From Candidatus Babelota bacterium (GTDB taxonomy: Bacteria; Babelota; Babeliae; Babelales; JABDEC01), in contig JABDFA010000009.1 of the NCBI GenBank assembly GCA_013286795.1, positions 6,023 to 70,022 of the forward strand: 64,000 nucleotides of DNA, read 5' to 3'. The notes below the pieces were generated by a model that did not search any database, was not told the DNA's origin, and worked only from the letters and a program-made list of their open reading frames with translations. Made by a program: the position numbers and the translations under genes. Below are positions 1,069 to 60,346 of the stretch, piece by piece. Every line of letters begins with the position of its first letter. The first letter of the stretch is position 1.

Positions 1069-1247
1069 CCGTTCGCCCTTAGCGACCTCTGAACGAGCGT
1101 TTACGCGAGTTGAAGAGGGAGTCGAATGGGTAATAATTTTTTAAGAATTTTATATTTTTGTATACAATATTTTTTTTAATTTAAGAAATCCATTCGACTC
1201 GGTCTTCGACTCCTTACGTCGCTCAGACCTCGCTCAGGACGAACGGG
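1069..1247. repeat. composite GC-rich inverted-repeat (MITE-like) element, copy 1 of 4
   Basis: Left arm 'ccgttcgcccttagcgacctctgaacgagcgtttacgcgagttgaagagggagtcgaatggg', AT-rich spacer, right arm 'ccattcgactc...tcgctcaggacgaacggg'. Same architecture at 32082, 39195 and 60154. Confidence 0.85.
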
Positions 1248-3530: not shown

Positions 3531-3560
3531 CCCCCGGTCATGGTGAGCCTGTCGAACCAT
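3531..3560. repeat. single GC-rich repeat arm ('cccccggtcatggtgagcctgtcgaaccat')
   Basis: Same module as 29377..29415 ('ccccccgcgctcgtggtgagcttgtcgaaccat'). It is the reverse of the 36564/46247 arms ('gctcgtatggttcg'). It contains the ATG used by ORF 3540. Confidence 0.8.
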
Positions 3561-4379
3561 TTTAAAAATGTAACTTTAAGCTTAGGGTTATTTTTAAGCT
3601 TTAATATTTTTTCAGAAAAATTTATTGATTTTATGAAAGCATCTGAACATTTTAATTCAGAGTGTTTATATAATAAGAATTGGAAAAATATACAAACTAC
3701 TTTTGATAACTTTATAGATAACATTACAGTTTCTAAATCTTCTAGAATCCCCAAAATTATTCATCAGATTTGGTTAGGTGGGCCATTCCCGGAAAGATAT
3801 AAAACTTTGCAAAATAGCTGGATAAAAAATCATCCTGATTGGACCTATATTTTGTGGACAGATGAATCAGTTGAAAGATTTGGTCTTAAAAATAAAGCGC
3901 TTTACAATAAAGCTAAAAACTTAGGTGAAAGATCAGATATAGTTCGCTATGAGGTTCTAGAAAGATTTGGCGGGTTATATATTGATACTGATTTTGAATG
4001 CATAAAATCTTTTGATATTTTACATCATATTTGCGATTTTTATACAAGTGTTGGTTATGGTCCGGATCCTGTTATTTTGTGTGGTCTTATTGGTTCTGTT
4101 CCAGCACACCCTATTCTTAAAGCTTGCATAGAAACTATGAAAAGAAAAGATTCTGAAAAAGACTCTTTTACTGATATCTTAAATAGAACTAGTATATTTC
4201 ATTTTACAAAATGCTTTCTTAATAATTATACTAAATCTTCAATAGCTTTTCCGGTAACATTTTTTTACCCTTTACCTGATTGTGCAAGAAATAGTAAATT
4301 AAAAAACTATTTAAAACCGGAAAGCTTTGCTGTGCATCATTGGCATCTTTCCTGGAATAATGGGAAAATAGGAGATTAA
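3540..4379 (+). CDS. GT32-family (Och1/Gly_transf_sug-like, DxD) glycosyltransferase
   Basis: 'IPKIIHQIWLGGPFPERYKTLQNSWIKNHPDWTYILWTDESV' and 'RSDIVRYEVLERFGGLYIDTDFECI' match the GT32 sugar-binding/DxD signature. Start is uncertain: the ATG at 3540 lies in a repeat, and the next ATG is at 3633. Confidence 0.75.
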   Translation: MVSLSNHFKNVTLSLGLFLSFNIFSEKFIDFMKASEHFNSECLYNKNWKNIQTTFDNFIDNITVSKSSRIPKIIHQIWLGGPFPERYKTLQNSWIKNHPDWTYILWTDESVERFGLKNKALYNKAKNLGERSDIVRYEVLERFGGLYIDTDFECIKSFDILHHICDFYTSVGYGPDPVILCGLIGSVPAHPILKACIETMKRKDSEKDSFTDILNRTSIFHFTKCFLNNYTKSSIAFPVTFFYPLPDCARNSKLKNYLKPESFAVHHWHLSWNNGKIGD

Positions 4380-4436
4380 GTGTGAAAAAGAATTTTGATC
4401 ATATATTAAATCTCTTTCTAAAAGTTGACTCTCTCT

Positions 4437-4586
4437 CCGTTCGCCCTGCCTGCCCGGCGAAGCTCAAAGAGCGAAGTCGGGAGTATCCGTCGAAGCCTTT
4501 GGCGAAGACGGATGTATCGAAGGGTGAATATACATTGCGTTCATGGATTCGATACGTTTGCTTCGCAAACACTCACCACGAACGGG
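4437..4586. repeat. GC-rich palindromic repeat element (chimeric, ~150 bp)
   Basis: Starts 'ccgttcgccctgcc...' and ends '...gttcatggattcgatacgtttgcttcgcaaacactcaccacgaacggg'. The right half closely matches the right half of the 48089..48207 element. Confidence 0.8.
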
Positions 4587-4618
4587 TTTTGAATTCTAGA
4601 AGAAATCTGATTTATATC

Positions 4619-5569
4619 ATGTTCTTTATTTTGTTTAAGATAATTGATGTTTACTCTTTTTGTCCATTAAATAGAGCTGATTTGGTTCTGTTTTCTTATG
4701 ATAGACCATTGCAACTTTATTCTTTCCTTGAGTCTGTAAAAAAGTATATTTTTGGCATTGAAGAAATACATGTAATTTACCGTGTAAGTAATAATGAATT
4801 TGAATCTGGTTATGATATAGTAAAAAAAGATTTTGCTGATGTGATTTTTCACAAACAATTAAAAGCAGATGATTTTAAACCATTAACTCTTGAATCAATT
4901 TTTAATAATGGTTCTAGATATATAATCTTTGGTGTAGATGACATAATAGTTAAAGATTATGTAAATTTAGGTACATGCATTAATTATCTTGAAAAATCTA
5001 ATTCTTATGGTTTTTACTTACGCATGGGCAAAAATATTGTTGAGTGTTATATGCATTTTAATGAACCTACACCAGTTCCAAAAATGAACCAAATCTCCCC
5101 CCCGGTCACCCTGAGCGAAGCCCGTAGGGCGCAGTCGAATGGGTCTCCTGAGTATTTATTAACTAATGTGTATAATGGAGTCTTTCAGTGGTCATTAAAT
5201 GATGGTAAAGGCGATTGGAAATACCCCAATAATCTTGATATGACAATTTACAGAAAGTCTGATCTTAAACAACTTTATAATTACAATTTCCAAAATCCTT
5301 CTGCATTAGAAGCAGTTTGGGCAGATAATGCAAATTATAACCAAAGAGGGTTATGCTTTGAACAATCAAAGATCGTTAATCTTCCATTAAATTTGGTCAT
5401 AGATGAAGCTCGAAATTTAGATAATCGCAATTCTTCTCTTTTTAATACCAAAGAATTACTTGATAAATTTATGTCAGGATTCAAAATCGATATAAATAAA
5501 TTCTATAGAATCAATAACCTAGCACCCCATGCTGCAATTGTTCCTACATTTATTCCAAGAACAATCTAA
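4619..5569 (+). CDS. GT-A-fold-like putative glycosyltransferase carrying an in-frame repeat insertion
   Basis: 'LVLFSYDRPLQLYSFLESV' (GT-A beta1-alpha1-like) and 'YIIFGVDDIIV' (DxD-like). I chose the ATG at 4619 because the track's GTG at 4382 reads through repeat 4437..4586. No family assigned. Confidence 0.45.
   Translation: MFFILFKIIDVYSFCPLNRADLVLFSYDRPLQLYSFLESVKKYIFGIEEIHVIYRVSNNEFESGYDIVKKDFADVIFHKQLKADDFKPLTLESIFNNGSRYIIFGVDDIIVKDYVNLGTCINYLEKSNSYGFYLRMGKNIVECYMHFNEPTPVPKMNQISPPVTLSEARRAQSNGSPEYLLTNVYNGVFQWSLNDGKGDWKYPNNLDMTIYRKSDLKQLYNYNFQNPSALEAVWADNANYNQRGLCFEQSKIVNLPLNLVIDEARNLDNRNSSLFNTKELLDKFMSGFKIDINKFYRINNLAPHAAIVPTFIPRTI
5097..5143. repeat. short GC-rich repeat module inserted in frame in CDS 4619..5569
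   Basis: 'ccccccggtcaccctgagcgaagcccgtagggcgcagtcgaatggg' encodes 'PPVTLSEARRAQSNG'. A near-identical module in yidD (53553..53594) encodes 'PVTLSEARSAKSNG'. Confidence 0.85.
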
Positions 5570-14960: not shown

Positions 14961-14965
14961 TTAAA

Positions 14966-22665
<7,700 letters not shown>

Positions 22666-27935: not shown

Positions 27936-28238
27936 TCATTTTTTATTAAACAGTATATCTTTTAAAGATTTTTTTTCTTTGTTGCATCTTAGGTTTGTTA
28001 GGTATAGATCTAAGTTTGGATCTTTTTTTAATAAGAGAGCAATTTTTCTTAATTTTTTTAAATTATTGATTTGTTTGTGAGCTTCTTCTTCCTTTTTCAT
28101 GATATCTTGAAGCGAGTAATTACGTACAAGTTTCCTGACTGTGTTTATTCTGGCTAAATACATTGAATTTGCGCTGCTGAAAGTAGCAAATAAAAAAGTA
28201 GATAAAACTTTAGTTTTGTAATTTTTATGTGTGAACAT
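27936..28238 (-). CDS. hypothetical small basic protein
   Basis: 100-aa ORF with a hydrophobic N-terminus and a Lys-rich helical remainder. No recognisable family. Confidence 0.35.
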   Translation of the reverse strand: MFTHKNYKTKVLSTFLFATFSSANSMYLARINTVRKLVRNYSLQDIMKKEEEAHKQINNLKKLRKIALLLKKDPNLDLYLTNLRCNKEKKSLKDILFNKK

Positions 28239-28314
28239 ATTATTTATCCTATAAATAGATCTAATACTTAGAATCTTGAAAATTGTACCTATTTAAAAGA
28301 TTTTGTAAATTATT

Positions 28315-28767
28315 TTAAATATTCTTTCTTGCTTCTTGACAATACTTAACGCATTCATGGCACCTGAATATACAGTTTTTACAAGCATCTACTACATCAG
28401 CCATCCATTCCTTAAATTCCTCTCCATAAGTATATGGCGGTTGAGTTTGATCCTGTTCTAGTTGAATCATGCAATTGGTACAAGCTTCCTGGGTTCTATT
28501 AGTAGCTTCTATTGCATGATCATACAATTCAATACATTCTGATTTTTTGCATTCTTTAATATGTTGTGTAAAATGATCTGCAAATCTTTTACAGCTTTCA
28601 ATTGTTTGGTCACAAATTACTAAACATTTATCTACTTGTTCAGCACATTCTAGTTCATTATTTTTTTCAAAAGTGTCTGTCAGTTTTTTACAAATCTCTA
28701 TACATTTTTTGCAAATTATTTCACATTGATTACAGCTTTCTAAAAATTCTTTTGATTTATGATTCAT
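28315..28767 (-). CDS. Cys-rich four-helix-bundle-type (DUF326/YhjQ-like) putative metal-binding protein
   Basis: Repeated C-x2/3-C spacing ('CNQCEIICKKCIEICKK', 'CAEQVDKCLVICDQTIESC', 'ACTNCMIQ', 'ACKNCIFRCHECVKYCQE'). Tandem paralog of 28782..29198. Confidence 0.55.
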   Translation of the reverse strand: MNHKSKEFLESCNQCEIICKKCIEICKKLTDTFEKNNELECAEQVDKCLVICDQTIESCKRFADHFTQHIKECKKSECIELYDHAIEATNRTQEACTNCMIQLEQDQTQPPYTYGEEFKEWMADVVDACKNCIFRCHECVKYCQEARKNI

Positions 28768-28781
28768 AATTACCTCCTTAA

Positions 28782-29198
28782 TTATTTAGATGCATTTATA
28801 CATTCATAACATCTTCTAGCGCATTCATTACATTTTTTTATTACATCTTCACATGCATCAATACATTCTTCCTGATTAGCTTTGCAATAATTTATACTCT
28901 TCTCACATGATGAAATGCATTCTTGGCATGTTTGAATACAGCGTTGCAAAACTGTAACACAGTGTTTGTCATCACAATTTTTTATATGCTCATTACATTG
29001 ATCTATCAATATTTTACTTGCTCCTATAGTTTCTCTACAAATACTTACACATTTGCCTACATCTTCTGCGCAGGCCTCTAAATTTTTTACGCTACACGCA
29101 CCTACTAAAAGTTGGCACACATCTATACATTTTTCACACTTTTCTATACATGTACTACATGCTTCAGCTAAACCTTTTGGTAAATGTTTATTATTCAT
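28782..29198 (-). CDS. Cys-rich four-helix-bundle-type (DUF326/YhjQ-like) putative metal-binding protein
   Basis: 'ACSTCIEKCEKCIDVCQ', 'CAEDVGKCVSICRE', 'CIQTCQECISSCEKSINYC', 'CIDACEDVIKKCNECARRCYEC'. Confidence 0.55.
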   Translation of the reverse strand: MNNKHLPKGLAEACSTCIEKCEKCIDVCQLLVGACSVKNLEACAEDVGKCVSICRETIGASKILIDQCNEHIKNCDDKHCVTVLQRCIQTCQECISSCEKSINYCKANQEECIDACEDVIKKCNECARRCYECINASK

Positions 29199-29376
29199 TT
29201 AACTCCTTAAATTTATATATTCTTAACTTCTTTGTTCAGTGTTGCAAAATTTTTTATACAAGATCAACGTTTTATTAGACTTTATACCTAATTAGATTCG
29301 TCGATTTCTCAGACAAGCTTTTAGGCATTACCAAGTTCTAGGCAAGTAAGTGTACTAGCGTATACAAAGAGTTTTT

Positions 29377-29415
29377 CCCCCCGCGCTCGTGGTGAGCTTG
29401 TCGAACCATACGAGC
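29377..29415. repeat. single GC-rich repeat arm
   Basis: 'ccccccgcgctcgtggtgagcttgtcgaaccatacgagc'. Related to 3531..3560 and the inverse of arms in 36564..36677. Confidence 0.8.
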
Positions 29416-29560
29416 AAATCAAATAATTCATAATATTTTAAGCTGATATCGCAAGAGATCTATTATAACAAGGAACTTATATCCTGCTGGACAAATTGTC
29501 TAATTGTGTTATTATTATATAAATAGTTAATTTATAAATATTATATTTAGGGGCAAAAAA

Positions 29561-30316
29561 GTGAAATTTTTACCAAAAACATTAATTTTTGCGTTATCAG
29601 TGACTTCAGGTATGCAAGCTATGCAGGAAGTTAAAAGGGAAGCTGAAAATAAAGAAGTTGTTGAACTAAGAGAGTTGCAAAAAAGGTTTCCTAGTTCTGT
29701 TAAATTCTTAATTAAAGTCTTAGGCGCACAAAAAGATAAGAAAAAAACCTTATTAGATAGGATTAATCCATTTGCAAAGTGTGAGTCTAGAGTAATAAAA
29801 AATGGTTTGCCTGACGATCTAATCATTAAGATCATTAACAATTATTTATGGATAGATAAAGTAAAATCTATTCCTCGAAATCGTATTATTAATTTGCAGG
29901 ATATAGCCGGTTTTGTAATAACAGGATCCTCTGATTTTGGTAAAACTGATGATATTGAAGGCATGCTTGTATATCCACCAGGTATGGGAGATCAATATGA
30001 TTATATGTCTGGAAATATAGATACATCATGCTATCGTTTTATATTTTACAAATGGGTTCCTCAACCATTCTGTAGGGATTTAAATAGTCCTAGAACATGT
30101 AGAAGTGGCGTTTCTCATAGTTTTAAATTTATGGGCTATTCTGTGTTAGATATAAATTCGAATCTAGATACATATGTTAATAATTTAAAAGAATTGATAA
30201 CTAAAGTTGAAGATGATCCTAAAATTGTTGTTGGTTTAGTGGTTTTGATGGGGGTAACTTATTTGGCAAGTACATCTGGAATAACTTATTATATTTTAAA
30301 AAAATTAAGAAAATAA
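29561..30316 (+). CDS. membrane-anchored protein with N-proximal F-box-like motif
   Basis: GTG start and signal-like 'LIFALSVTSGMQA'. 'GLPDDLIIKIINNYLW' fits F-box helix 1. C-terminal TM 'IVVGLVVLMGVTYLASTSGITYYIL'. Confidence 0.5.
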   Translation: MKFLPKTLIFALSVTSGMQAMQEVKREAENKEVVELRELQKRFPSSVKFLIKVLGAQKDKKKTLLDRINPFAKCESRVIKNGLPDDLIIKIINNYLWIDKVKSIPRNRIINLQDIAGFVITGSSDFGKTDDIEGMLVYPPGMGDQYDYMSGNIDTSCYRFIFYKWVPQPFCRDLNSPRTCRSGVSHSFKFMGYSVLDINSNLDTYVNNLKELITKVEDDPKIVVGLVVLMGVTYLASTSGITYYILKKLRK

Positions 30317-30401
30317 TTTAAAACCATTGATAAAAAAATAGCTCTTATTTATCATTTTTTTGGCTCTTTAAAATTTATAGTTTTACAAGAAGGGACAAAG
30401 A

Positions 30402-30878
30402 ATGAAAAAAAATATATTTTTTGGGTTATTCTTAATAAATTTTTGTTCAACTGTGTTTACAATGAGTTTTAAAAATTCAGAGATTCCTGAAGATCTTAAA
30501 AATTCTATTAGAGCTGCATGTGATAAAGAGTATAAAGAAAAAACAGCAGAGTGTTTGATAGCAGAAGTGTTAATTGAAGAATTTATAAAAAAGGATGCTA
30601 AAAATTTGAACATAGCAGATCAATTGGGAAAAACATTACTAATCTACTCAGTTATATATGGACCATCCAGGATAATAAGATATTTGGTAAAAAATAAAGT
30701 AGATATTAATGCTCAAGATAAGAAGGGTAATACTGCATTAATATATGCAGCTAAATTAAGAAGAAAGAGCGTTGTTGATTTATTGGTTAATGCAAAAGCA
30801 GATGTTACAAAAAAGAATAAAGCTGGCAAGACTGTTTTTAATATGATTGAGCCAGAATTCAAAGATATTGATAAATGA
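30402..30878 (+). CDS. small ankyrin-repeat protein with signal peptide
   Basis: 'GKTLLIYSVIYGPSRIIRYLVKNKVDINAQDKKGNTALIYAAKLRRKSVVDLLVNAKADV'. Confidence 0.75.
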   Translation: MKKNIFFGLFLINFCSTVFTMSFKNSEIPEDLKNSIRAACDKEYKEKTAECLIAEVLIEEFIKKDAKNLNIADQLGKTLLIYSVIYGPSRIIRYLVKNKVDINAQDKKGNTALIYAAKLRRKSVVDLLVNAKADVTKKNKAGKTVFNMIEPEFKDIDK

Positions 30879-30930
30879 GTAAAATTTTGTATGGTTAATA
30901 AATAAAACTAATAAATATTAAGGTAAACGT

Positions 30931-32022
30931 ATGCATCAAAATAAAACAGAAAAAGCAACTATAGTAGATGATATAAGTTTTTCTGGTAATATATTCATTT
31001 TCCATGCATTTGATGTAGGTGAAGATATAGATTTGGAAAGCCTAGAAAAAGCTCAGATATTAACTAGAAAATCTTTTATTTTGCCAAAATATTTCAAAAG
31101 ATATCATGTACCCCTTTCTGTTGAACTTCCAGAACCTAGTGAAGGGAATGATTGTTATAGTATAAAAATTCATAGTTTTGGGGCCATATCAATTACTTAT
31201 AAAATTCCTTTTGAAGAAAGTTTGGAGGATCTTAGAAATAAGATAAATAATTTGGATGAAAAATATCAGGAACAAAGTATAAGTGATGCGTTATCTATAT
31301 TTAATAAGATTAGACAATTTATAGTAAAGCCAAAATTTTTTCATTTAAGAACTTCTTATCCTGTAATTCAAGTTTTTCCAAAAATTGATGCAGTTGCAAT
31401 GAAGGAAAAATATGGCCAAACGGTTGCTTCACTTTTAAGATTTGAAACAGAAAACTTATCTGAATATCAAAAAGATGAAATTTTAGAATCAGCTATGGGT
31501 TATTATCGGGGTGATTTTATAGTAATTGATGCAGAAGCTGCATTTGTTGCAGATGCAGAATTTGAAGAAATATTGGATCTTTTTGAGTTTTCAAATATAC
31601 AACACTTAGAGTTGCAGTTTTTTGATAAGGTTTTAAATAACCAACTTAGTATTATTTATGAACAAAAAGTTAAATCGTTGCCTTTTGCTGCCTACTTACC
31701 ATTCATTGGTGCCAGAGATGCTTCTAATATAGATTTAGGTAGATTAAAAGTTGATATTTCAGTTATCACAGAAAGATTAGAAGATAGCATAAAATTAACT
31801 GGTGAAGTTTATTATTCAGATATTTATGGTCTTCTGGCAAACGCTCTTGATTTAGCTAAATGGAAAGAGTCTATAGATAATAAACTTGATATTATCAAGG
31901 ACATTCAAGAAGTTTATCAAAACCAAATAGACAGTATTCGGGAAGATTTACTTTCTGTGCTTATTATAATACTAATTTTTATTGAGTTAGTTGTAGGTAT
32001 ACTGAGTTATTTAAAGCATTAA
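30931..32022 (+). CDS. hypothetical protein with C-terminal TM helix (possibly DUF155/RMD1-like)
   Basis: 363-aa ORF. C-terminal 'LLSVLIIILIFIELVVGILSYL'. The family assignment is a weak recollection only. Confidence 0.4.
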   Translation: MHQNKTEKATIVDDISFSGNIFIFHAFDVGEDIDLESLEKAQILTRKSFILPKYFKRYHVPLSVELPEPSEGNDCYSIKIHSFGAISITYKIPFEESLEDLRNKINNLDEKYQEQSISDALSIFNKIRQFIVKPKFFHLRTSYPVIQVFPKIDAVAMKEKYGQTVASLLRFETENLSEYQKDEILESAMGYYRGDFIVIDAEAAFVADAEFEEILDLFEFSNIQHLELQFFDKVLNNQLSIIYEQKVKSLPFAAYLPFIGARDASNIDLGRLKVDISVITERLEDSIKLTGEVYYSDIYGLLANALDLAKWKESIDNKLDIIKDIQEVYQNQIDSIREDLLSVLIIILIFIELVVGILSYLKH

Positions 32023-32081
32023 AGCTACAACTTAAGTGTTTTAAAATAATAATTAATTATATAAAAAGAGCTTTATCCAAT

Positions 32082-32330
32082 CCGTTCGCCCTGAGCGACC
32101 TCTGAGCGAGCGTTTACGCGAGTCGATGAGGGAGTCGAATGGGTAAAAATTTTCTTAAAAATTTTATATTTTTTTGCATGAAATAATTTTTTTAAATATT
32201 CAATTATAATAATATTTAAAAACTTAATCTTTTTTTTAGAATACAGGAAACCCGTTCGACTCATTCTTCAACTCTCCTTCGACTCGCTTTGCTCGCTCAG
32301 GATCGTTCAGAATTCGCTCAGGGCGAACGG
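32082..32330. repeat. composite GC-rich inverted-repeat (MITE-like) element, copy 2 of 4
   Basis: 17-bp perfect termini 'ccgttcgccctgagcga' / 'tcgctcagggcgaacgg'. GC-rich arms flank an AT-rich spacer whose 5' part is conserved with copies 1 and 3. Lies between convergent genes. Confidence 0.9.
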
Positions 32331-32362
32331 AGAAAGGGTAACTTTTAAACTTAGACTGATAA

Positions 32363-34114
32363 TTATTGTAATGCTGCTTCCCAGGATGCAAATAATAGTT
32401 TATGTTTTTTTTGTAGCTCGCCTATTTTTTCGTAACGGGAAGAAAATTCTTCTGTGCCATAATCATAATTAGCAAGTTCGCAAGATAGCTGATCAATTTC
32501 TTTTTCAATTTTATTTATTTGATTTTCTAGCTTTTTTATTTCTTTATTTTGTTCAAAACTATTTTTTTTAACAACTTCTTGTGAGATTAGGACTTTTTGT
32601 AATAAAGGTTCCTGCTTTTCTTCAATAAATTTTTTGTGATATGAATATTCTTCGTAATTGCCAGTATATTTATAGGCCCCTGTAGGTGTTAATTCAATAA
32701 TATGAGTTGAAAGATTATTAATAAAGCTTTGGTCATGTGAAACAAATAAAATTGTGCCCTGATATTGTTTTAATGCATCTAGCATTATGTCTTTAGATAC
32801 AATATCTAGATGGTTTGTTGGTTCATCAAGTATCAACAAATTTGCTTGTTGGAGTAATACTTTTGCCATGCTCAGACGGTTTCTTTCTCCACCGCTTAAA
32901 ACCCTTGTTTTTTTATGAATTAAATCTTGAGTAAACAAGAAACATCCAAGCATTCCTCTAATTGCAAGATCAGTAATTTTTGGAGCAGCGGTTTGCATAG
33001 TTTCAAAAATTGTTTTTTCAGGATCCAGCGCAGAAACTTGATCTTGTTCAAAAAATGCAGTTGTAACATTATATCCAAAAGTTATATTACCATTTTGAAG
33101 CTGATATTTTTTCATTATAACATTTAATAATGTTGTTTTGCCTACGCCATTAGCTGCTATTAAGGCTATTTTTTCATTTCTTTCTATTAAAAATTCGATG
33201 TTACTAAATATTTTTTTTGATTCAAATTTATGTTGCACATTTTTTAATGTAAGGACAGTCTGTCCAGAAGGTTCTATTTTTGGTAACTTAAATTCGACTT
33301 TTTTTATTTGTTGAGGTAGTACTATGCGTTCTATTTTATCAAGTGCTTTTTGCATACTTTTTGCTGCAGAAGCTTTTGTTGCCGATGCTTTGAATCTATC
33401 AATTGTTGATTGTTTACGAACGATTTCTTTTTGTTGTTGTGTATATTGAGCTTCTAGGGATTTAAAGCGTTCATTTTTTTGTTTTTCATAATCGCTATAA
33501 TTTCCTTTATATGGAGATCCATTACCGTTTTCTAGCTCAAATACAGAACTGCAAATGTTATCCAGAAAATAACGTTCATGACAGACTAGTAAGAATCCAA
33601 AGGGGGCATCTTTTAGAAAATTTAAAAACCATGCTTTTGTTACAATATCTAAGTGGTTTGTTGGTTCATCAAAAAGATAAAAATCTGCTTTTTGTAAAAG
33701 TAATTTGGCAAGAACCACTCGCATACGCCAGCCTACACTTAATTCTGTAACTGGTTGCTCTATTTGTTTTAGCGTGAAGCCAAGACTCATTAACATTTTT
33801 TTAGCTTCAGCTTTAATGCTTTCAGTTTCTGATTCATCTAGGATTTCAGCAGAGCTCATAACTTCATCAATAACTGATTTTATTGAGTTTAAAATAACCT
33901 CTTGGGGCATGTATCCAATTTTTTTATTTGATGATAGTTGTACAAATCCTGAATCACACTCTTGTTGCTGGGCTATTATTTTTAATAAAGTAGACTTTCC
34001 TGACCCATTTAAGCCTACAAGACCTACTTTTTCGTCTGAGTTTATATTATAAGAAATATTATTAAATATTTTTTGTGTACCAAAAGAAAGGCACAAACTT
34101 TTTATTTGAATCAT
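32363..34114 (-). CDS. ABC-F family ATPase (two ABC cassettes, no TM domain)
   Basis: Walker A 'GLNGSGKSTLL' and 'ANGVGKTTLL'. Signatures 'LSVGWRMRV' and 'LSGGERNRL'. Walker B 'LFDEPTNHLD' and 'ILDEPTNHLD'. C-terminal coiled coil. Confidence 0.9.
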   Translation of the reverse strand: MIQIKSLCLSFGTQKIFNNISYNINSDEKVGLVGLNGSGKSTLLKIIAQQQECDSGFVQLSSNKKIGYMPQEVILNSIKSVIDEVMSSAEILDESETESIKAEAKKMLMSLGFTLKQIEQPVTELSVGWRMRVVLAKLLLQKADFYLFDEPTNHLDIVTKAWFLNFLKDAPFGFLLVCHERYFLDNICSSVFELENGNGSPYKGNYSDYEKQKNERFKSLEAQYTQQQKEIVRKQSTIDRFKASATKASAAKSMQKALDKIERIVLPQQIKKVEFKLPKIEPSGQTVLTLKNVQHKFESKKIFSNIEFLIERNEKIALIAANGVGKTTLLNVIMKKYQLQNGNITFGYNVTTAFFEQDQVSALDPEKTIFETMQTAAPKITDLAIRGMLGCFLFTQDLIHKKTRVLSGGERNRLSMAKVLLQQANLLILDEPTNHLDIVSKDIMLDALKQYQGTILFVSHDQSFINNLSTHIIELTPTGAYKYTGNYEEYSYHKKFIEEKQEPLLQKVLISQEVVKKNSFEQNKEIKKLENQINKIEKEIDQLSCELANYDYGTEEFSSRYEKIGELQKKHKLLFASWEAALQ

Positions 34115-34181
34115 ACTTTTATTATATATAATATATCTTATACGGCAACAGGCTTGAATTTATTAGGTTTTAGGAGCACTT

Positions 34182-35072
34182 GTGAATATAAAACATGTTT
34201 TAATTGTAATTGTCTTTTTACTTGTAGAATCAACAGATTGTATGATTGAGTTAGAAACCCCGGCCAACCAGCTTTTCAGGGGAGCGCAAGAAGGAAAATT
34301 GGGTTTAGTTAAAAGTGCGTTAGATGCTCGCGTGGATGTCAATGTTACAAGAAAAGACAGAGTTGAAATTGACGTTTCTTATGAAGGATTTACACCATTG
34401 ATGCACGCTGCAGAATATGGCCAAGATGAAATAGTTAAATATTTATTAAAAGCTAAAGCTCATATCAATCAACGAAATGAATATGGTGATACTGCATTAA
34501 GAATTGCAGCTGGTTCTAGAGTTATAGGAACATCTGAAGTTGTTCAAATTTTACTGAATGCAAAAGCTAATCCAAATTTAGTGGAATCCTGGACTGGGAC
34601 TACAGCACTGAGCGCTACAAGAAATATTGAAATGATTCAGCTTTTATTGCAATTCAAAGCGGACCCGAATATTAGGCATAAAGATAGCTCTACATTTTTG
34701 ATGGATTTATTTGAAGAGGATAGCTGCAAGGAAAATTTAGTTGATATATTATTAAAAGTTGGAGCAGATGTTAATTTGCAAGACTCTACGGGTATGAATG
34801 TTCTTATGAGGGCAATGTGCCGAAGTTATTGTAATAAAAAAACTATAATTAAATTTCTTAAAGCAGGTATAAATTTATTGCAAGTTGATATGTGGAAAAA
34901 CAATGTCTTAAGTTATATGAAGCGATATAAAATAACTGATCAATTTATAAAAACTTTGATTGAACGTTTGATTGTTCAACAAAAAAGACAGGTTAAAGGT
35001 GAAATTAGTAAACATTTGCTACCAGATTTGGCAAATATTGTTTTTGAATATTTAATTAATCTAGATATTTAA
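34182..35072 (+). CDS. ankyrin-repeat protein with signal-like N-terminus and C-terminal F-box-like motif
   Basis: ANK units ('GFTPLMHAAEYGQDEIVKYLLKAKAHINQRNEYGDTALRIAA'). 'LLPDLANIVFEYL' at nt 35016..35054. Confidence 0.8.
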   Translation: MNIKHVLIVIVFLLVESTDCMIELETPANQLFRGAQEGKLGLVKSALDARVDVNVTRKDRVEIDVSYEGFTPLMHAAEYGQDEIVKYLLKAKAHINQRNEYGDTALRIAAGSRVIGTSEVVQILLNAKANPNLVESWTGTTALSATRNIEMIQLLLQFKADPNIRHKDSSTFLMDLFEEDSCKENLVDILLKVGADVNLQDSTGMNVLMRAMCRSYCNKKTIIKFLKAGINLLQVDMWKNNVLSYMKRYKITDQFIKTLIERLIVQQKRQVKGEISKHLLPDLANIVFEYLINLDI

Positions 35073-36132
35073 TAAATGTACCTTGAGTTATGGTTTGTTT
35101 TACTTTATCAAATTCTTGTTTATAATTTTCATCAATTTGGGATAGTGATAATAGAGTATTATTTATTTGAACTAATGGGTCGGTTCCACTGAACTTGCCT
35201 ATTAAATGTAAATCACTATTTTCTTGGTCGCAAATAATATAACTATTTTTATGGTTTTTAACCTTTCCTACAGACTTTTTTATTTCAGGATCTTCACTTG
35301 TGTTTAGTCTGTTCCATATAATATCATCAGTAGAAAAATGGATATCATTATGATCTATTAATTTAATTTTGCATGCTTGCTTCATTGCCTGACTAGCTTG
35401 GAAGCTTACAAAATTATCCCATGTTGCACCCCAGCGTAATTCAGATAGTTTTATAGATAATAGGCCAAACTGTTTGGCTATTGTTTTATCTTTAAAAAAC
35501 CAATTTCTATTTTCAAAGTATAAATTGTTAATTATATTGAGAATATCTTCTTTGCTTATTAAATTATCTATAAATCCTCCGGCTAAATTATACTCAATTC
35601 TATCAGCGCATAGGTTTGGTAGATTTTGATCGAAGCAAAGTTGTGTTTTTTTCTTTTCTAAACAGCAACTTTTTTCTAATCCATATTTTTTTAAAATTTC
35701 TGTAATGCCACTTTTTTCTAGGTACCATTCATGAATATTATCTTGATATGAGTTTTTTCCGGTACGATAATTATTATCAAAAAAAATGTCTCCAACGTGT
35801 GAAAAAACTGTATGTGATACATCATGTAATAATCCGGCTACTTGTTCTTCTAAAGGTGCCCCAAATTTTTTAGTGATAAAATATACACCTAGTGAATGCT
35901 GATATCTTGTATATTCATATTCTTGATTTGCATAGTAGGTTACACCATATTGGCGAATGTTTTTAAGTCTTTTGAAAGCAGAGCTTTCTATTAATTCTTT
36001 GATAACAGCATCTGTTGTTGTTATTTCGCCATATAGTGTGCTAATTTTTAGACTAGGGTCCATGTTTTTTACGCTTGCGATTCCAAATAGATCAGGTATT
36101 AGAATGGAGATTAAGAATAATATTTTCTTCAT
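35056..36132 (-). CDS. HD-domain metal-dependent phosphohydrolase with signal-like N-terminus
   Basis: 'RYQHSLGVYFITKKFG...VAGLLHDVSHTVFSHVGD' (H..HD..H pattern of SAMHD1/COG1078-type HD proteins). N-terminus 'MKKILFLISILIPDLFGIASV'. Confidence 0.75.
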   Translation of the reverse strand: MKKILFLISILIPDLFGIASVKNMDPSLKISTLYGEITTTDAVIKELIESSAFKRLKNIRQYGVTYYANQEYEYTRYQHSLGVYFITKKFGAPLEEQVAGLLHDVSHTVFSHVGDIFFDNNYRTGKNSYQDNIHEWYLEKSGITEILKKYGLEKSCCLEKKKTQLCFDQNLPNLCADRIEYNLAGGFIDNLISKEDILNIINNLYFENRNWFFKDKTIAKQFGLLSIKLSELRWGATWDNFVSFQASQAMKQACKIKLIDHNDIHFSTDDIIWNRLNTSEDPEIKKSVGKVKNHKNSYIICDQENSDLHLIGKFSGTDPLVQINNTLLSLSQIDENYKQEFDKVKQTITQGTFIKYLD

Positions 36133-36148
36133 TATACTCCTTTATTTT

Positions 36149-36550
36149 TTACATGGTTTTTTCAAAATCTAGTAATTTTATTTTTCTTTCGATTCCCCAT
36201 TTATATCCACCAAGTTTACCATCTTTTCTTATAACTCTATGACATGGCACAAAATAAGCAATCTTATTTTGTGCTAGAGCGTTGGCAACAGCTCTGTGTG
36301 CCTTTGAATGTCCAATTTGGTTAGCAATATCCTGATACGTGACTGTTTTTCCTGAGGGTATTTTTAAAGCGGCTTGCCAGACTTTGATTTGAAATTCGGT
36401 TCCTACTAAATTAAAGTTTTTAAGATTGATATTTTTTGACGATTCAGTAACGTTTTTTTCATCAACAAAAATAGCTTCTTGTATAGCGTTATTATTTGTT
36501 GAAACTTTTATATTTCCTGCAGGGGTTTTATAGTAAAAAAAATTGCTCAT
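36149..36550 (-). CDS. ogt: methylated-DNA--protein-cysteine methyltransferase
   Basis: Active-site 'VPCHRVIRKDGKLGGYKWG' and HTH 'TYQDIANQIGHSKAHRAVANA'. Confidence 0.9.
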   Translation of the reverse strand: MSNFFYYKTPAGNIKVSTNNNAIQEAIFVDEKNVTESSKNINLKNFNLVGTEFQIKVWQAALKIPSGKTVTYQDIANQIGHSKAHRAVANALAQNKIAYFVPCHRVIRKDGKLGGYKWGIERKIKLLDFEKTM

Positions 36551-36563
36551 TAGTTTCCTTAAT

Positions 36564-36677
36564 GCTCGTATGGTTCGTCCTTCGATTTCGTGCTACGCAC
36601 TTCACTCAGGATGACCGGGGGAGGGAGGAAAAAAGTCCAGTCATGCTGAGCTTGTCGAAGCATCACCACGAGCGCGC
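36564..36677. repeat. GC-rich repeat pair filling the ogt-grpE spacer
   Basis: 'gctcgtatggttcgtccttcgatttcgtgctacgcacttcactcaggatgaccgggggaggg' followed by 'gtcatgctgagcttgtcgaagcatcaccacgagcgcgc'. Confidence 0.85.
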
Positions 36678-36685
36678 TTTAACGT

Positions 36686-37174
36686 TTATTTTGCTACTAT
36701 TACTTTGGCTGGTCGTAAAACTTTATCCTTTAATAAAAACCCTTTTTGTAATACAGAAACTATATCTCCAGATTTGTGTTCAGGTGATTCAATTTGTGAA
36801 ATAGCTTCATGGAATTCAGGGTTAAATCCCTTGAAATCTGTTATCTCTTTAACATTATTTTGTTCTAGAAATTTATATAAAGATTTATAGATCATTTCAA
36901 ATCCAGAAAGCCAGGCTGTTAAATCTTTATTTTGTTCTGTCTTTTTTTGTTCCAACATTGCTCTGTCAAAATTGTCTACAATGTCCAAAATATCAGATAG
37001 TAAGTCTGATTTTGCCATTTCTATCCAAGCAATTTTTTCTTTTTCTATTCTTCTTTTGTAATTATCAAAATCTGCGCTGAGCCTAATCAATGATTCCTTT
37101 GATTGTTGTAGCTCATTTTGGCAATTTTCTAAGCTTTTATTTTCTTGTTCAGGTATATTATTCTCAAAATCCAT
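36686..37174 (-). CDS. grpE: nucleotide exchange factor GrpE
   Basis: 'LIRLSADFDNYKRRIEKE' and C-terminal 'GFLLKDKVLRPAKVIV' are typical GrpE. Confidence 0.9.
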   Translation of the reverse strand: MDFENNIPEQENKSLENCQNELQQSKESLIRLSADFDNYKRRIEKEKIAWIEMAKSDLLSDILDIVDNFDRAMLEQKKTEQNKDLTAWLSGFEMIYKSLYKFLEQNNVKEITDFKGFNPEFHEAISQIESPEHKSGDIVSVLQKGFLLKDKVLRPAKVIVAK

Positions 37175-37274
37175 ATTTATTTACCCCTGGTTGACTGAAT
37201 TTGTTTTATTAACACTTTTTTAATATTATATCATGTAATGTAAACATTAGAAGATAGTAAAATTTAAATTTTAT

Positions 37275-37308
37275 CCTTCGACAGGCTCAGGATGACCGGG
37301 AGAGGGGA
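37275..37308. repeat. single GC-rich repeat arm immediately upstream of an RBS
   Basis: 'ccttcgacaggctcaggatgaccgggagagggga' matches 'cactcaggatgaccgggggaggg' at 36603..36625. RBS 'aaaaggag' and the ATG at 37324 follow. Confidence 0.8.
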
Positions 37309-37323
37309 TTAAAAGGAGATTTA

Positions 37324-38565
37324 ATGAGATTTAAAAGAGTATTTTTGATATTGTTTATTTTAACCTTTACTATTTGTTCTATTGATAATCCCCATTTTTT
37401 CAGAGGCAGTTATTTTTTTGGTGAACCCCGCATAGCAAAAGATAATTTATTTACGTCTCAGATAAGATTTTCTGGAGGCGGGACATTTGATGGTATAAAT
37501 CGAGAATGTAAAACTAATATTTTACAAATATATGGTAGGGAAAATATTTTTGAGTTGGCCAATGGCGCGCCGGAATCTGTTTTGGATAAAAATCCAGGTA
37601 GTTTTTTAGATACTTTATGGCAGAAGACTCCTGCAAATAAGAATTTTGGACAAATGGATTTTTTTGGCCATTTTCAGACTATTGAACTTGATTTTGATAT
37701 TCAACAAAATTTTAAGTATGGAATATTTACTGAGCTTTACGTTCCAATTCGAGAGTTGCAAACTCATAATATAAGTTTTAAAGATTTTTCAACAAAGGAA
37801 AATGCTGGTCCTGATATAAATTTTGCCCAATGGCAGAATTTTGTTAGATATTTTGATAGTTATCTGAATAGATACGGTCTTTGTTTGCACAGCTCTAAAG
37901 TTACAAGTTTAGCAGATATGACTACTCTTATTGGCTGGACATTAAACTATGAAGATACTAAGTATATTGATTATATAGATGCTAGCATTAAGTTGGGAGT
38001 TGTTTTTCCCTTCGGTAAAAAAAAGGTTGATAATGTGTTTGCTATATCTCCAGGCTATGGACATTGGGGGTTTCCAGTATATGTTGATCTTTCTGTTGGA
38101 CTTTATGAATGGTTGACTTTAGGCGGACATTTATCCGGCATAGTTTTTGGCTCAGATAGAGAAAACCTTTACATGAAAACTGCAAATTCTCAAAATGGAT
38201 TAATTAAAATTACAAAAGGCGCAGCAACAGTTGATTTTGGGTCAATATTAACTTTTGGATTATTTTTAAGAGGGGATCATGTTAATAGAAGATTTTCTTT
38301 TTTACTTGCATATAGATATGATCAACAATTTGCCACTAAATTGCGTCCATTTGATCTAAGTACATTTAGGTCTGCTATAGTTAATAATGATAGTACGTTA
38401 AAAGGTTGGGTGATGCATACGATAGATTTTTCTATGGAATATGATTTTGCTACTTATTTGTGTCCAAATAGGCCACGTTTAGAACTCTTTTTTGATATAC
38501 CTGTTGCTGGTAAGAGAATTTTTAAAACTACTATGATTGGTTTAGGGGTTTCATTTGATTATTAG
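37324..38565 (+). CDS. putative outer-membrane beta-barrel protein
   Basis: Signal peptide 'VFLILFILTFTICS'. Alternating beta-strand-like segments. C-terminal 'IGLGVSFDY' (aromatic terminus). Confidence 0.45.
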   Translation: MRFKRVFLILFILTFTICSIDNPHFFRGSYFFGEPRIAKDNLFTSQIRFSGGGTFDGINRECKTNILQIYGRENIFELANGAPESVLDKNPGSFLDTLWQKTPANKNFGQMDFFGHFQTIELDFDIQQNFKYGIFTELYVPIRELQTHNISFKDFSTKENAGPDINFAQWQNFVRYFDSYLNRYGLCLHSSKVTSLADMTTLIGWTLNYEDTKYIDYIDASIKLGVVFPFGKKKVDNVFAISPGYGHWGFPVYVDLSVGLYEWLTLGGHLSGIVFGSDRENLYMKTANSQNGLIKITKGAATVDFGSILTFGLFLRGDHVNRRFSFLLAYRYDQQFATKLRPFDLSTFRSAIVNNDSTLKGWVMHTIDFSMEYDFATYLCPNRPRLELFFDIPVAGKRIFKTTMIGLGVSFDY

Positions 38566-39016
38566 TGGCATAAATTTTTTCAAGTTTATTCTGGGCCTCT
38601 TGTAATAAAACCTTAATACAGATCACTTTTTCTAAATCACAATAATTTTTTGTTATATCTCTATATAAAGAATTTAAATCAGCTAAAAACTGATTTAAAT
38701 TTGTCTCTGGCAAGTTAGTAGGAGTTTTTTCTATTTCAAAAAGAAGAGTATTTAAATCTACTGATGAATTTAACATAGCCTGGCAAAATTTATCAAATTC
38801 TTCTGGGGATTGTCCATTGACTTGATAATTTCTTATAAATTGAAACTGATATGAAAATATTTTGTTTAGTTGTTCTACTGGAGATACTGGGTAAAGTTGG
38901 TCAAAAGATATAGGCTCTTTTGCCAGAGAGAAAAAGGTTATTATCATAAAATATATAACTAAAATAAATAGAATCGAAACCATTTTTCTAATAAAACTAA
39001 ACATTTTCACCTCCAC
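38531..39016 (-). CDS. hypothetical membrane-anchored protein
   Basis: 161-aa ORF with N-terminal TM 'MVSILFILVIYFMIITFFSL'. No family recognised. Confidence 0.4.
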   Translation of the reverse strand: MEVKMFSFIRKMVSILFILVIYFMIITFFSLAKEPISFDQLYPVSPVEQLNKIFSYQFQFIRNYQVNGQSPEEFDKFCQAMLNSSVDLNTLLFEIEKTPTNLPETNLNQFLADLNSLYRDITKNYCDLEKVICIKVLLQEAQNKLEKIYATNNQMKPLNQS

Positions 39017-39194
39017 TTAATCTTAATTATAAAATCGCACAAAACTATTCAAATTGTCAATATAGATATGATTTATATAAAAAAACCCTAAAGATTAGGT
39101 TTTTTTGGAGGGGATAAATAAACGTGAGGGTGATTTCTGCTAGAATTGGACATAATTTGGATTTGTTAACTATTAATAAGTATTTTTTTCTATT

Positions 39195-39408
39195 CCGTTC
39201 GCCCTGAGCGACCTCTGAGCGAGCGTTTACGCGAGTCGAATGAGGGAGTCGAATGGGTAAGAATTTTTTAAGAAGTTAATATTTTTATAAATTTCTTTTT
39301 TAAAATATTAAATTAAGAATAATAACAACCCATTCGACTCATTCTTCAACTCTCCTTCAGCTCGCTTGGCTCGCGAAGGATCGTTCAGAATTCGCTCAGG
39401 GCGAACGG
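39195..39408. repeat. composite GC-rich inverted-repeat (MITE-like) element, copy 3 of 4
   Basis: Near-identical to copy 2 in both arms and has the same 17-bp termini. Lies just downstream of ssb. Confidence 0.9.
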
Positions 39409-39457
39409 AAATAAGAAGTCTAATATTATTTTTCTTATAAGAAACCTTAGAATTTAA

Positions 39458-40027
39458 TTAAAATGGTAAGTCATCTTGAAATGGTGGTTCGTCCTTAAAC
39501 TCGATTTCTCCTGAACCTTCAAAGTCAGAATCCTTAGCTTTTTTTGCAGCGGAAGTTTTCTTAACTTTTTTTTCAGTTTCAGAAGATCTAGATTTAATTT
39601 CTTCAAGTTGATCCAATAAATCTTTTTCTAGTTGATTCTTAGGTTCAACTCTTGTATCTGACATATCTTCAGAGGAAATGTCAACTCCTGGTGCGGAGCT
39701 TGATAAGAAAACGACCTTATCAGCTACAATAATATGTTTACTACGAGTTTGGCCTTCTGCATCTTTCCAAGAATCAAATTTTAAACGACCTTCAACTAAA
39801 ACTGGTCTACCTTTTTGAAGATATTGTCTGCAGCTTTCAGCTTGAGGTCCCCAAACTTCTGCATCAATATAACATACTTCTTGTACCAAAGCTCCTGATT
39901 GTTTATTCTTGTATTGACGATTGGTAGCCAATCCTAATTTTGTAAGAGCTTGACCTGTAGTAAGTTGCTTATATTCAGGATCTCTTGTTAAATTTCCAAC
40001 GATGATAATACGATTATATCCGGCCAT
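39458..40027 (-). CDS. ssb: single-stranded DNA-binding protein
   Basis: 'MAGYNRIIIVGNLTRDPE' OB-fold start and acidic C-terminal tip 'FQDDLPF'. Confidence 0.95.
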   Translation of the reverse strand: MAGYNRIIIVGNLTRDPEYKQLTTGQALTKLGLATNRQYKNKQSGALVQEVCYIDAEVWGPQAESCRQYLQKGRPVLVEGRLKFDSWKDAEGQTRSKHIIVADKVVFLSSSAPGVDISSEDMSDTRVEPKNQLEKDLLDQLEEIKSRSSETEKKVKKTSAAKKAKDSDFEGSGEIEFKDEPPFQDDLPF

Positions 40028-40041
40028 GCAGAATCCTCAGT

Positions 40042-40440
40042 TTAGTTTTTATTATTCTTAACAACACAGAACTTCTTTTTTAAAGAAGTTAAATTTTTTT
40101 CTATAATTTTTATATTTTCTTCAAATTTATCTTTAAAAGAATTTAATTCATTTAAAGCATTTTTTAATTCCTGTCTGCTTGCATTTGCTATAAAACAGGT
40201 TTGATCATTTTCAAAACATTCTTCAACAGTATCTAATAATAATCTGCGCAATTCTGTAGATATTTCTGTTAAATTTGTATCTAATTTTAAAATATCTCCG
40301 GAAGTTCTGACTATTTTCTCTTTAGTTTTAGAAGAGGAGTCATTGTTTGGAGAATTTACTTTTTTTTGTATAGTAAACTCTGAATCATTACAAAATTGCT
40401 TAAATGTTGATAATAAAATTATTATTAAAAAAATTTTCAT
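40042..40440 (-). CDS. hypothetical secreted coiled-coil protein
   Basis: 132-aa ORF with a signal-like N-terminus. 4-nt overlap with pgsA. Confidence 0.4.
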   Translation of the reverse strand: MKIFLIIILLSTFKQFCNDSEFTIQKKVNSPNNDSSSKTKEKIVRTSGDILKLDTNLTEISTELRRLLLDTVEECFENDQTCFIANASRQELKNALNELNSFKDKFEENIKIIEKNLTSLKKKFCVVKNNKN

Positions 40441-40997: not shown

Positions 40998-40999
40998 AA

Positions 41000-42481: not shown

Positions 42482-42489
42482 TTGGTTTA

Positions 42490-44004: not shown

Positions 44005-44044
44005 AGGTCTTCCTGATATGAGAATATTTTGTTTATTTATATTA

Positions 44045-45103: not shown

Positions 45104-45273
45104 TAGATCACTTTAATATTAATTTGTTTAATATAAATAATTTATATCTATTTTTTTTATTTGTAAATACAGTACCAATTTTTTATTTTTTCAATTTGCA
45201 ATAAAATATTATTGACTAAGGGTTATTTATTCTGTTATCCTGATATCATGTGAAATTTATATTCCCCTATAAT

Positions 45274-53526: not shown

Positions 53527-53804
53527 ATTTAATAAAACAACTTTTACCCTTTCCGGTCACCCTGAGCGAAGCACGTAGTGCGAAGTCGAATGGGTTTACT
53601 ACCTTTATAAAAAAACTTTTACTTGATATAATTCTAGTCTTAAGACCCTTATTTGCACCCCAAGGTGCATGTAAATATTTGGTTTCTTGCACAGATTTTG
53701 CAAAAATTGAACTTGAAGAAAAAACCTTTATTTACGCTTTTCTTTCTATTTTAAAACGAGTTTTATCTTGTCATCCCTTTTCAAAAACTAGTAATATCCA
53801 GTAA
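53523..53804 (+). CDS. yidD: membrane protein insertion efficiency factor YidD with repeat-derived N-terminal insertion
   Basis: 'CKYLVSCTDFAKIELEE...LKRVLSCHPF' matches the YidD core (C.F.P.CS.Y......RCHP). Residues 9..25 ('PFPVTLSEARSAKSNGF') are encoded by repeat 53553..53594. Confidence 0.8.
   Translation: MNLIKQLLPFPVTLSEARSAKSNGFTTFIKKLLLDIILVLRPLFAPQGACKYLVSCTDFAKIELEEKTFIYAFLSILKRVLSCHPFSKTSNIQ
53553..53594. repeat. 42-bp GC-rich repeat module inserted in frame in yidD
   Basis: 'ccggtcaccctgagcgaagcacgtagtgcgaagtcgaatggg'. Sister copy at 5097..5143. Confidence 0.85.
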
Positions 53805-60153: not shown

Positions 60154-60346
60154 CCGTTCGCCCTGAGCGACCTCTGAACGAGCTTTTAAGCGAGTTGAAG
60201 AGGGAGTCGAATGGGTAAAAAATTATTTTTTTAAATATATTAAATTACAGCAATAACTAAAGTTTTATATTATTGTATAAAAAAATATTCCTTCGACTCT
60301 ATCTTCGGCTCCTTACGTCGCTCAGATATCGCTCAGGACGAACGGG
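60154..60346. repeat. composite GC-rich inverted-repeat (MITE-like) element, copy 4 of 4
   Basis: Left arm 'ccgttcgccctgagcgacctctgaacgagcttttaagcgagttgaagagggagtcgaatggg'. Right arm '...ccttacgtcgctcagatatcgctcaggacgaacggg' resembles copy 1. Lies between convergent genes. Confidence 0.9.

Follow-up and report, generated by a model that had tools for sequence, protein, structure and literature searches.

What are the four GC-rich inverted repeats that recur at the 3' ends of genes in the 64,000-nucleotide stretch of Candidatus Babelota DNA analysed here (contig JABDFA010000009.1, positions 6,023 to 70,022; hereafter the window), and why are they found there? A first-pass annotation had taken them for a miniature inverted-repeat transposable element (MITE) that is tolerated as, or was co-opted into, a bidirectional transcription terminator or mRNA-stabilising hairpin. 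Comparison with the rest of the genome and with relatives leads to a different answer as to mechanism. Each copy is a doublet of two hairpin units placed in inverted orientation on either side of an AT-rich linker, and the same units bracket small genes encoding a GIY-YIG nuclease elsewhere in the genome. As far as their sequences tell, the doublets are the gene-less counterparts of these GIY-YIG hairpin cassettes, the linker replacing the gene.

All four copies were recovered in the window. Copy 1 (1069..1246) comprises an A-type arm at 1069-1131 (+), an AT-rich spacer at 1132-1187 and a short B-type arm at 1188-1246 (-). Copy 4 (60154..60345) has an A-type arm at 60154-60216 (+), a spacer and a short B-type arm running to 60345 (-). 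In copy 2 (32082..32330) the A-type arm (32082-32144, +) is followed by a 105-nt spacer and a three-level arm of 81 nt (32250-32330, -), and in copy 3 (39195..39408) the A-type arm (39195-39258, +) is followed by a 69-nt spacer and a three-level arm (39328-39408, -). The limits first given for copies 2 and 3 stand, while the right ends of copies 1 and 4 fall one base short of the positions assigned to them. Alignment of the four copies bore out the proposed succession of GC-rich arm, AT-rich spacer and inverted arm, the common spacer start in copies 1-3 and the division into two right-arm subfamilies, a short one (copies 1 and 4, ~59 nt) and a long one (copies 2 and 3, 81 nt). The 63-nt left arm is nearly invariant. 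Perfect 17-nt ends had been described for all four; they are present in copies 2 (32082/32314-32330) and 3 (39195/39392-39408), and copies 1 and 4 carry one mismatch per end. Searching with the 17-mer CCGTTCGCCCTGAGCGA at up to three mismatches gave 10 matches in the window compared with 0.01 expected from shuffled sequences: two per copy, inverted, and single sites at 5102 and 53553. Because the GC content of the window is otherwise 25-33%, apart from a 46% GC block at 11-22 kb, the arms stand out. An Rfam scan of the window at the gathering threshold returned two tRNAs and nothing else.

The gene context was as first described, with copies 2 and 4 between convergent genes and copies 1 and 3 downstream of one gene. 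Copy 1 occupies a tandem (++) gap, 44 nt past the stop codon of an ankyrin gene; its neighbours encode an ankyrin protein and Dps according to Pfam. Copy 2 is flanked by a convergent 363-aa open reading frame (ORF) and an ABC-F gene, and copy 4 by convergent glyoxalase and nth (endonuclease III) genes, while copy 3 follows ssb (39458..40027, minus strand) after 49 nt; the ABC-F, SSB, glyoxalase and endonuclease III assignments also derive from Pfam matches.

The same arrangement extends to the whole genome, an ankyrin-rich assembly of 1.25 Mb in 21 contigs with ~30% GC and 94% completeness. It contains 17-18 inverted pairs of 158-429 bp and about 100 single units of related families; heads of the family found in the window copies (family A) number ~43, and those of the superfamily about 125. 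Positions were scored on a crude, ORF-based map of 1199 genes with 88% coding sequence. Convergent gaps make up 14.6% of all gaps in this map and hold 8 of the 17 intergenic pairs (P=0.0014). The other nine pairs are in tandem gaps and none is in a divergent gap (P=0.03 by count, 0.003 by length). The location at gene 3' ends noticed for the window copies is thus a genome-wide bias. Tandem gaps showed no orientation preference, the A-type arm being turned towards the upstream gene four times and towards the downstream gene three times.

A comparison of 47 units by length showed each arm to be a complete, self-contained hairpin unit. The unit begins with an invariant 5' head, CCGTTCG (or CCGGTCA), and continues as a rod-like hairpin in which one, two or three modules are nested. 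A module consists of a short Watson-Crick stem that the conserved strands CUGAGCGA / GAGUCGAA close, the stem-closing sequences being CTGAGCGA on its 5' side and GAGTCGAA on its 3' side. These conserved strands can be read as two G-C pairs enclosed by tandem G.A pairs, with one U/T bulged out. Between copies the stems vary in a compensated manner, as in CCTCT/AGAGG, TGTCT/AGACA, TGTTT/AAACA, GGTCT/AGACC and ATTCT/AGAAT.

The rod-like structure was tested on an alignment of 29 distinct units. In total 95.3% of cells were paired, and 8 of the 16 pairs varied on both sides (62 cells). None of 500 shuffles performed as well, and slid controls reached at most 52%. Three units have A-T in place of the "loop" pair G25-C44. 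In 14 of 16 gene-less doublets the stems differ between the two arms, each being compensated internally; what is constrained is therefore the hairpin of each single arm and not the pairing of one arm with the other. Folded as one long hairpin, copy 2 has a predicted energy of -110 kcal/mol (z = -10.9), and the arm hairpins have predicted energies of -22 to -26 kcal/mol; z-scores for RNA folding of single units are modest (-0.1 to -2.5). The predicted structure is accordingly based on covariation and not on folding energy. In palindromic DNA such covariation may also arise by DNA-level templating, and it does not discriminate RNA from single-stranded DNA.

The link to a nuclease comes from the cassettes. 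Six small GIY-YIG genes are present in the genome, together with a longer seventh match that is probably UvrC. Four of the six small genes are bracketed by inverted units, each with a unit family of its own. The cassette at C3:46493-46921, which surrounds a 95-aa GIY-YIG gene (C3:46565-46849), has exactly the unit family seen in the window copies. At C6:~9920-10360 the cassette shares its family with a second composite in the window, at 4436-4590, whose right arm matches the units on both sides of the GIY-YIG gene at C6:9994-10281. Those on C5 and C2 have CC[GA]GTCATCCTGAGGGA units, which resemble the short single units. The GIY-YIG nuclease is the sole gene type that was found bracketed by these ends.

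Across the order, a homologue of the nuclease was detected in 110 of 261 genomes, usually in 1-5 copies and in some cases with internal stops. At 23 of 30 sampled loci the gene flanks form an inverted hairpin repeat (z = 9-126), nearly always beginning CCG(T/C)TCG. The unit frame, CCTGAGCGA...GTCGAAYGG, has a patchy distribution, with 19 of the 261 genomes carrying it and none in a reversed control; the present genome has 42 copies and the next highest 14. The nuclease is found in 14 of the 19 frame-bearing genomes compared with 96 of the 242 others (Fisher P=0.006, a significance overstated by ignoring kinship). The protein matches Pfam GIY-YIG with 66-68 bits, and NCBIfam yields no specific family. 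A degenerate 17-mer scan of contigs from other genomes gave chance matches only, in GC-rich genomes.

The family-A cassette, which is outside the window, shows a further feature. Its GIY-YIG gene has no in-frame stop and reads through the right-hand unit into a TilS-like gene (tRNA(Ile)-lysidine synthetase, with the PP-loop motif SGGPDS), giving one 462-aa ORF at C3:45461-46849. No ATG, GTG or TTG was seen between the unit and the PP-loop motif.

Comparison of insertion sites in relatives had been proposed in the first-pass annotation as a means of telling insertions from ancestral sequence. It was carried out with a sister lineage, Ga0207097, of which three contigs were obtained by a metagenome scan with the A-arm core and a fourth by protein-cluster look-up. 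These contigs are mostly 90-96% (~93%) identical in nucleotide sequence to the present genome, with a third-codon identity of 0.85-0.90, and the comparison covered copies 1, 2 and 4 and a doublet at C14:20434, ~40 kb of shared sequence in all. Only 2 of ~12 unit or doublet loci in these ~40 kb are unchanged. The elements are therefore not static ancestral sequence.

Copy 4 is absent from sister contig L182, where the stop codons of the glyoxalase and nth genes are 2 bp apart; the corresponding gap here measures 296 bp and consists of 70 nt of unique sequence, the 193-nt doublet and 33 nt of unique sequence. Where copy 1 stands here, the sister carries one A unit in reverse orientation and has no ankyrin gene. 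Copy 2 is kept in sister contig L179, with a right arm of two levels compared with three here, a 7-nt apex standing in place of a complete 28-nt module. This orthologue as a whole lies within another inverted pair of arms, 78 and 74 nt long, that open with the same CCGTTCGCCCTGA head, and the structural changes between the lineages at copy 2 fall exactly at the heads. A paralogue in the present genome (C8:53585) has outer flanking arms of a different unit family (CCGTTCGTGGTGAG...) and, to its right, the same conserved ~45-nt segment as the copy-2 orthologue. The doublet at C14:20434 is present and collinear in both lineages. The two shared doublets, copy 2 and C14, thus predate the split of the two lineages. 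In the nearest genus, G004 (ABC-F 69% identical), a bidirectional terminator, AAAAAAGCGCCGG...CCGGCGCTTTTTT, follows the ABC-F gene and the repeat is missing; the element is also absent from the 3' regions of nth in G001 and G004. A search for strain variants by way of identical proteins revealed none, the Logan contigs of run SRR8433578 ending inside the repeat. The DNA itself occurs in JGI 3300020829 and in the runs SRR8433578 and SRR8433449.

Two further observations concern sequence next to doublets or cassettes. The gene downstream of the C14 doublet (C14:~20700; L180:5731; product MHKIFVILY...) shows a 27-nt in-frame difference in its N-terminal region, where the sister has a full CCGGTCATCCTGAGGGA... 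unit and the present genome its tail only. In addition, a conserved motif, AAAAGATGTGGGTAATGCATAG, is located just outside doublets or cassettes (C8:53820-53880, L179:9375-9450, L153 and L167); the motif is shared by the present genome, the sister and other members of the order, and its core TGTGGGTAA is one base off the DnaA-box-like TGTGGATAA.

Doublets that were retained have changed little. Copy 2 and its orthologue show 2 differences over the 193 nt that they share, against 10-14% divergence at third codon positions in the genes on either side (P about 7e-9). For the C14 doublet the count is 2 in 158 nt, with 14.6% divergence at third codon positions (P about 6e-9). The spacers taken alone gave 2 differences in 105 nt for copy 2 (P=1.7e-4) and 1 in 37 nt for C14 (P=0.02). 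Paralogous spacers differ greatly, so gene conversion among paralogues is no explanation, and since the immediate flanks of both doublets are more diverged than the elements themselves, neither are recent recombination tracts or homing with co-conversion. These data, from two loci in one lineage pair, suggest that resident doublets are under purifying selection, and the conservation of the retained copies argues that the doublets do something. The retained copies have evolved at roughly a tenth of the synonymous rate in spite of gain, loss and remodelling of the same elements, and this combination is the signature expected if selfish repeats were taken over for a host function at gene ends.

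Nuclease-driven spread, survival at 3' ends and later use under selection can be combined into one reading of these non-autonomous hairpin doublets, which is considered probable although by no means assured. Two inverted GC-rich hairpin units flank an AT-rich linker, and the same units are the terminal inverted repeats of ~95-aa GIY-YIG cassettes in this genome and across the order. The cognate nuclease is predicted to recognise the units as single-stranded DNA hairpins and to drive, or once to have driven, their spread, loss and remodelling in trans. Insertions would survive only where promoters are undisturbed, that is, at gene 3' ends. Resident doublets would be transcribed into 3' untranslated regions, in which each arm may form a stable hairpin of its own, able to stall exonucleases or polymerase, and this RNA use, or an equivalent DNA-level use, would keep the retained copies under purifying selection. 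The repeat family, the covariation of its hairpins, the cassette link, the 3'-end bias, the turnover between lineages and the excess conservation are observed; the nuclease-dependent mobility and any RNA-level function are what we infer from the sequences. A more elaborate form of the proposal, in which domesticated doublets under strong purifying selection at gene ends are accompanied by growth of the family through complete ~28-nt hairpin modules entering the apex of resident hairpins by GIY-YIG-driven insertion of single-stranded DNA, is thought quite unlikely. It would account for arms with one, two or three levels and for the 21 nt by which the apex of copy 2 differs from that of its orthologue, and such an apex-targeted mode, if true, is not described for REP/RAYT, Ssn/NTS or DDE MITEs.

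With regard to function, a role of the doublets as terminators or mRNA stabilisers is plausible. Their position, the constraint on them, the stable arm hairpins, the canonical terminator at the orthologous site in G004 and the parallels to REP and Correia elements (PMC3116915, PMC2649163) speak for a use at the RNA level, and the doublets sit just downstream of stop codons, as a terminator would. The first U run begins 6-7 nt beyond the stem of the A arm, and no U-tract follows the whole-element hairpin. Canonical terminators do exist in the genome (65 of 510 unit-free 3' regions compared with 13 of 510 after shuffling), and Rho is present. A search for RNase III domains (PF14622, PF00636) detected none in the 94%-complete genome, so the long hairpins would more likely protect 3' ends than be cleaved; processing by RNase III, as in Correia elements, was discarded on the same ground. 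Mutual exclusion of units and canonical terminators was likewise dropped, being a trend only (P=0.10). Alternatively, the doublets may have a role at the DNA level as a nuclease target, by analogy with NTS repeats.

Several results weigh against the combined reading of nuclease-driven spread and later use. On the RNA side, a terminator scan of 28000-46000 called none of the arms, which lack an adjacent U-tract. Canonical terminators are not significantly rarer in 3' regions with a unit than in those without (2 of 48 versus 65 of 510, P=0.10), and at the copy-4 site a distance of 2 bp between the convergent genes suffices in the sister. As to mobility, the copy-4 difference could reflect an insertion here or a deletion in the sister; the gap also contains 103 nt of unique AT-rich DNA. 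None of the 17 pairs showed a target-site duplication, nor did the clean empty and filled sites, the flanks of some copies instead prolonging the inverted repeat (ATCCAAT...ATTGGAT), and no defined insertion target was found for doublets. The paralogous window copies are only ~71% identical overall, so there was no recent burst. Unit orientation did not follow GC skew, third-position skew or gene-strand bias (10 of 15, p=0.30). As to the nuclease, its nearest relatives in the PDB are the UPF0213 proteins 1ywl and 1zg2 and not a named Ssn, and the published SRM pattern HGTCWYN(0-2)YYVSBRHN(0-5)WNVSBRGN(0-2)RNCYNB, which on a hand check accepts the canonical NTS sequence, had 0 matches in the genome (0-1 in ten shuffles). 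Local alignment of all 17 doublet spacers with the four cassette interiors gave z mostly <2. Spacers are thereby ruled out as remnants of the nuclease gene, and doublets lacking detectable homology to that gene are not simple deletion derivatives of cassettes.

The classical form of the MITE proposal, a deleted derivative of a DDE insertion sequence moved in trans through its 17-bp ends and tolerated as a bidirectional terminator, is very improbable. The doublets do have inverted 17-nt ends (0-1 mismatch), a size of 158-249 bp and 17-18 pairs in the genome, they are present or absent between lineages, and the genome carries DDE_Tnp_1 and rve genes. These genes, however, are not bracketed by head motifs: three of the four DDE ORFs have no head motif within 1.5 kb and the fourth is accompanied by one unit, on just one of its sides. 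The missing target-site duplication and the bracketing of the GIY-YIG gene alone point the same way, and each supposed terminal repeat is a complete autonomous hairpin that is also found singly. Other mobilising enzymes were sought in the 94%-complete genome, where RAYT/Y1 (PF01797) gave no match although control genomes did, and the TnpB domain was not found. What stands of the original idea is a dispersed, non-coding, palindromic repeat family that is unstable between lineages; "MITE" is right in spirit, as a term for a non-autonomous, mobile or unstable palindrome, and wrong in mechanism. A second possibility is that the palindromes are purely selfish or neutral, gather at 3' ends as harmless sites and owe their conservation to gene conversion or recent exchange between co-occurring lineages. 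The turnover at all but 2 of ~12 loci, the empty copy-4 site without any replacement, the ~40 paralogous arms that might act as conversion donors and the absence of canonical terminator features fit this. It is nevertheless regarded as unlikely, because locus-specific spacers are conserved (2/105 and 1/37 nt) while paralogous ones differ strongly, and because the immediate flanks are more diverged than the elements.

A role mainly at the DNA level must also be weighed, in which the units, like the NTS of Neisseria, would be single-stranded DNA targets of the resident GIY-YIG nucleases and would modulate recombination or incoming DNA around particular genes, the RNA hairpin being incidental. 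SsnA of Neisseria meningitidis, a 94-aa GIY-YIG protein, cuts only single-stranded DNA; the cut falls immediately upstream of NTS, a hairpin repeat of defined orientation whose 5' flank is conserved (Chenal et al. 2025, PMC11893778). Genes for ssnA in many phyla are flanked by NTS-type repeats, with orphan repeats in hundreds, a layout that the authors liken to insertion sequences and REP/RAYT (PMC11893778). The architecture described here parallels NTS-ssnA-NTS with its orphan repeats, an invariant CCGTTCG head precedes every hairpin, and the lineage-specific structural changes fall exactly at these heads. Set against this, evidence of natural transformation is wanting in this intracellular lineage, no clustering around particular gene classes was seen in the window, there is no replication-strand bias and the SRM pattern does not apply. 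As a full explanation, a mainly DNA-level role is therefore deemed distinctly unlikely, and the reading of nuclease-driven spread followed by use under selection is preferred.

Related units also occur outside the four doublets in the window, where the earlier description had not listed them. A 155-bp composite of a different unit family (CCGTTCGCCCTGCC... / ...CACTCACCACGAACGG), mentioned above for its match to the C6 cassette, occupies 4436..4590, in the 5' portion of the mechanical ORF 4382..5569, whose first ~70 codons are the translated repeat. Since the sister carries a different short unit there, of E-type, the true start is probably downstream. A single 43-nt hairpin unit (CCGGTCACCCTGAGCGA...GTCGAATGGGT) is found at 5102..5144 (+), in a glycosyltransferase-like ORF, and another single unit of 43 nt at 53553..53595 (+), in frame in the N-terminal region of yidD, whose Pfam YidD match (residues 31-89) begins after the unit. 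The first of these is part of an in-frame insertion of 75 nt (5102-5176) made up of the unit and a 32-nt tail that recurs after other single units; all 75 nt are absent from sister contig L181, giving a clean empty site. A 33-nt mini-unit (CCGGTCATGGTGAGCCTGTCGAACCATT...) at 3534..3566 (+) is present in this genome and not in L181. It provides the ATG of the mechanical ORF 3540..4379, and the sister has neither the unit nor that ATG. Units can thus generate false ORF starts and in-frame insertions, which is relevant to the annotation of these genomes. The GC-rich block of the window, at 11076-22665, contains three tandem minus-strand ORFs of ~1285 aa each, with 46% GC in a 30% GC genome.

Rickettsia palindromic elements (RPE) are GC-richer palindromic repeats of an AT-rich intracellular bacterium, and they include in-frame insertions into genes. 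The single 43-nt units at 5102 and 53553 are in-frame insertions of the same sort, whereas the four doublets are intergenic and a candidate cognate enzyme can be named here. Correia elements of Neisseria duplicate a TA target. The present elements differ from them in the lack of a duplication, in the absence of a detected RNase III domain and in ends that are complete autonomous hairpins. Resemblances are found in other traits of Correia elements, namely that they are non-coding, 100-250 bp long, built of inverted ends and a core, gene-adjacent and co-transcribed, that their presence varies between strains and that effects on neighbouring transcripts are proposed (PMC2649163). Correia elements are reported to bind RNase III and to be either cleaved or protected by the enzyme (PMC2649163).

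The relation of doublet to cassette may be likened to that of REPIN/BIME to RAYT, or of orphan NTS/dRS3 to ssnA in Neisseria. With the REPIN/BIME-RAYT system (Bertels and Rainey 2011, PMC3116915) the doublets share an inverted pair of hairpins with a spacer, an extragenic location, a better conservation than that of singlets, a cognate enzyme gene flanked by units and the lack of a target duplication. They differ in having a GIY-YIG gene, no Y1/RAYT being found, and in units of 43-81 nt with nested modules as opposed to REPs of ~20-35 nt (PMC3116915). With NTS/dRS3-SsnA they have in common a ~95-aa single-domain GIY-YIG gene between inverted hairpin repeats, many orphan oriented hairpins with a conserved 5' flank that lie mostly outside genes, a repeat subfamily for each nuclease paralogue and an enrichment in host-associated bacteria. 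The hairpin here, in contrast, takes the form of a long rod in which CUGAGCGA/GAGUCGAA modules are nested, and the orphans form defined heterotypic doublets with a conserved AT-rich linker. Because the SRM pattern fails and the nearest nuclease relatives are UPF0213 proteins, the system is provisionally classed as a variant of the Ssn type rather than placed within the SRM family.

Beyond these parallels, the present analysis adds the doublet-cassette relation for this family, a nested-module model with covariation, statistics on the location at 3' ends, and turnover together with constraint in a sister lineage. The pairing of a small GIY-YIG nuclease with genomic hairpin repeats is extended to Babeliales/Dependentiae, and such pairs are candidate sequence-specific tools for single-stranded DNA. 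Compared with the known Ssn repeats, the nested G.A-rich rods and heterotypic doublets represent an architecture that the published search pattern misses.

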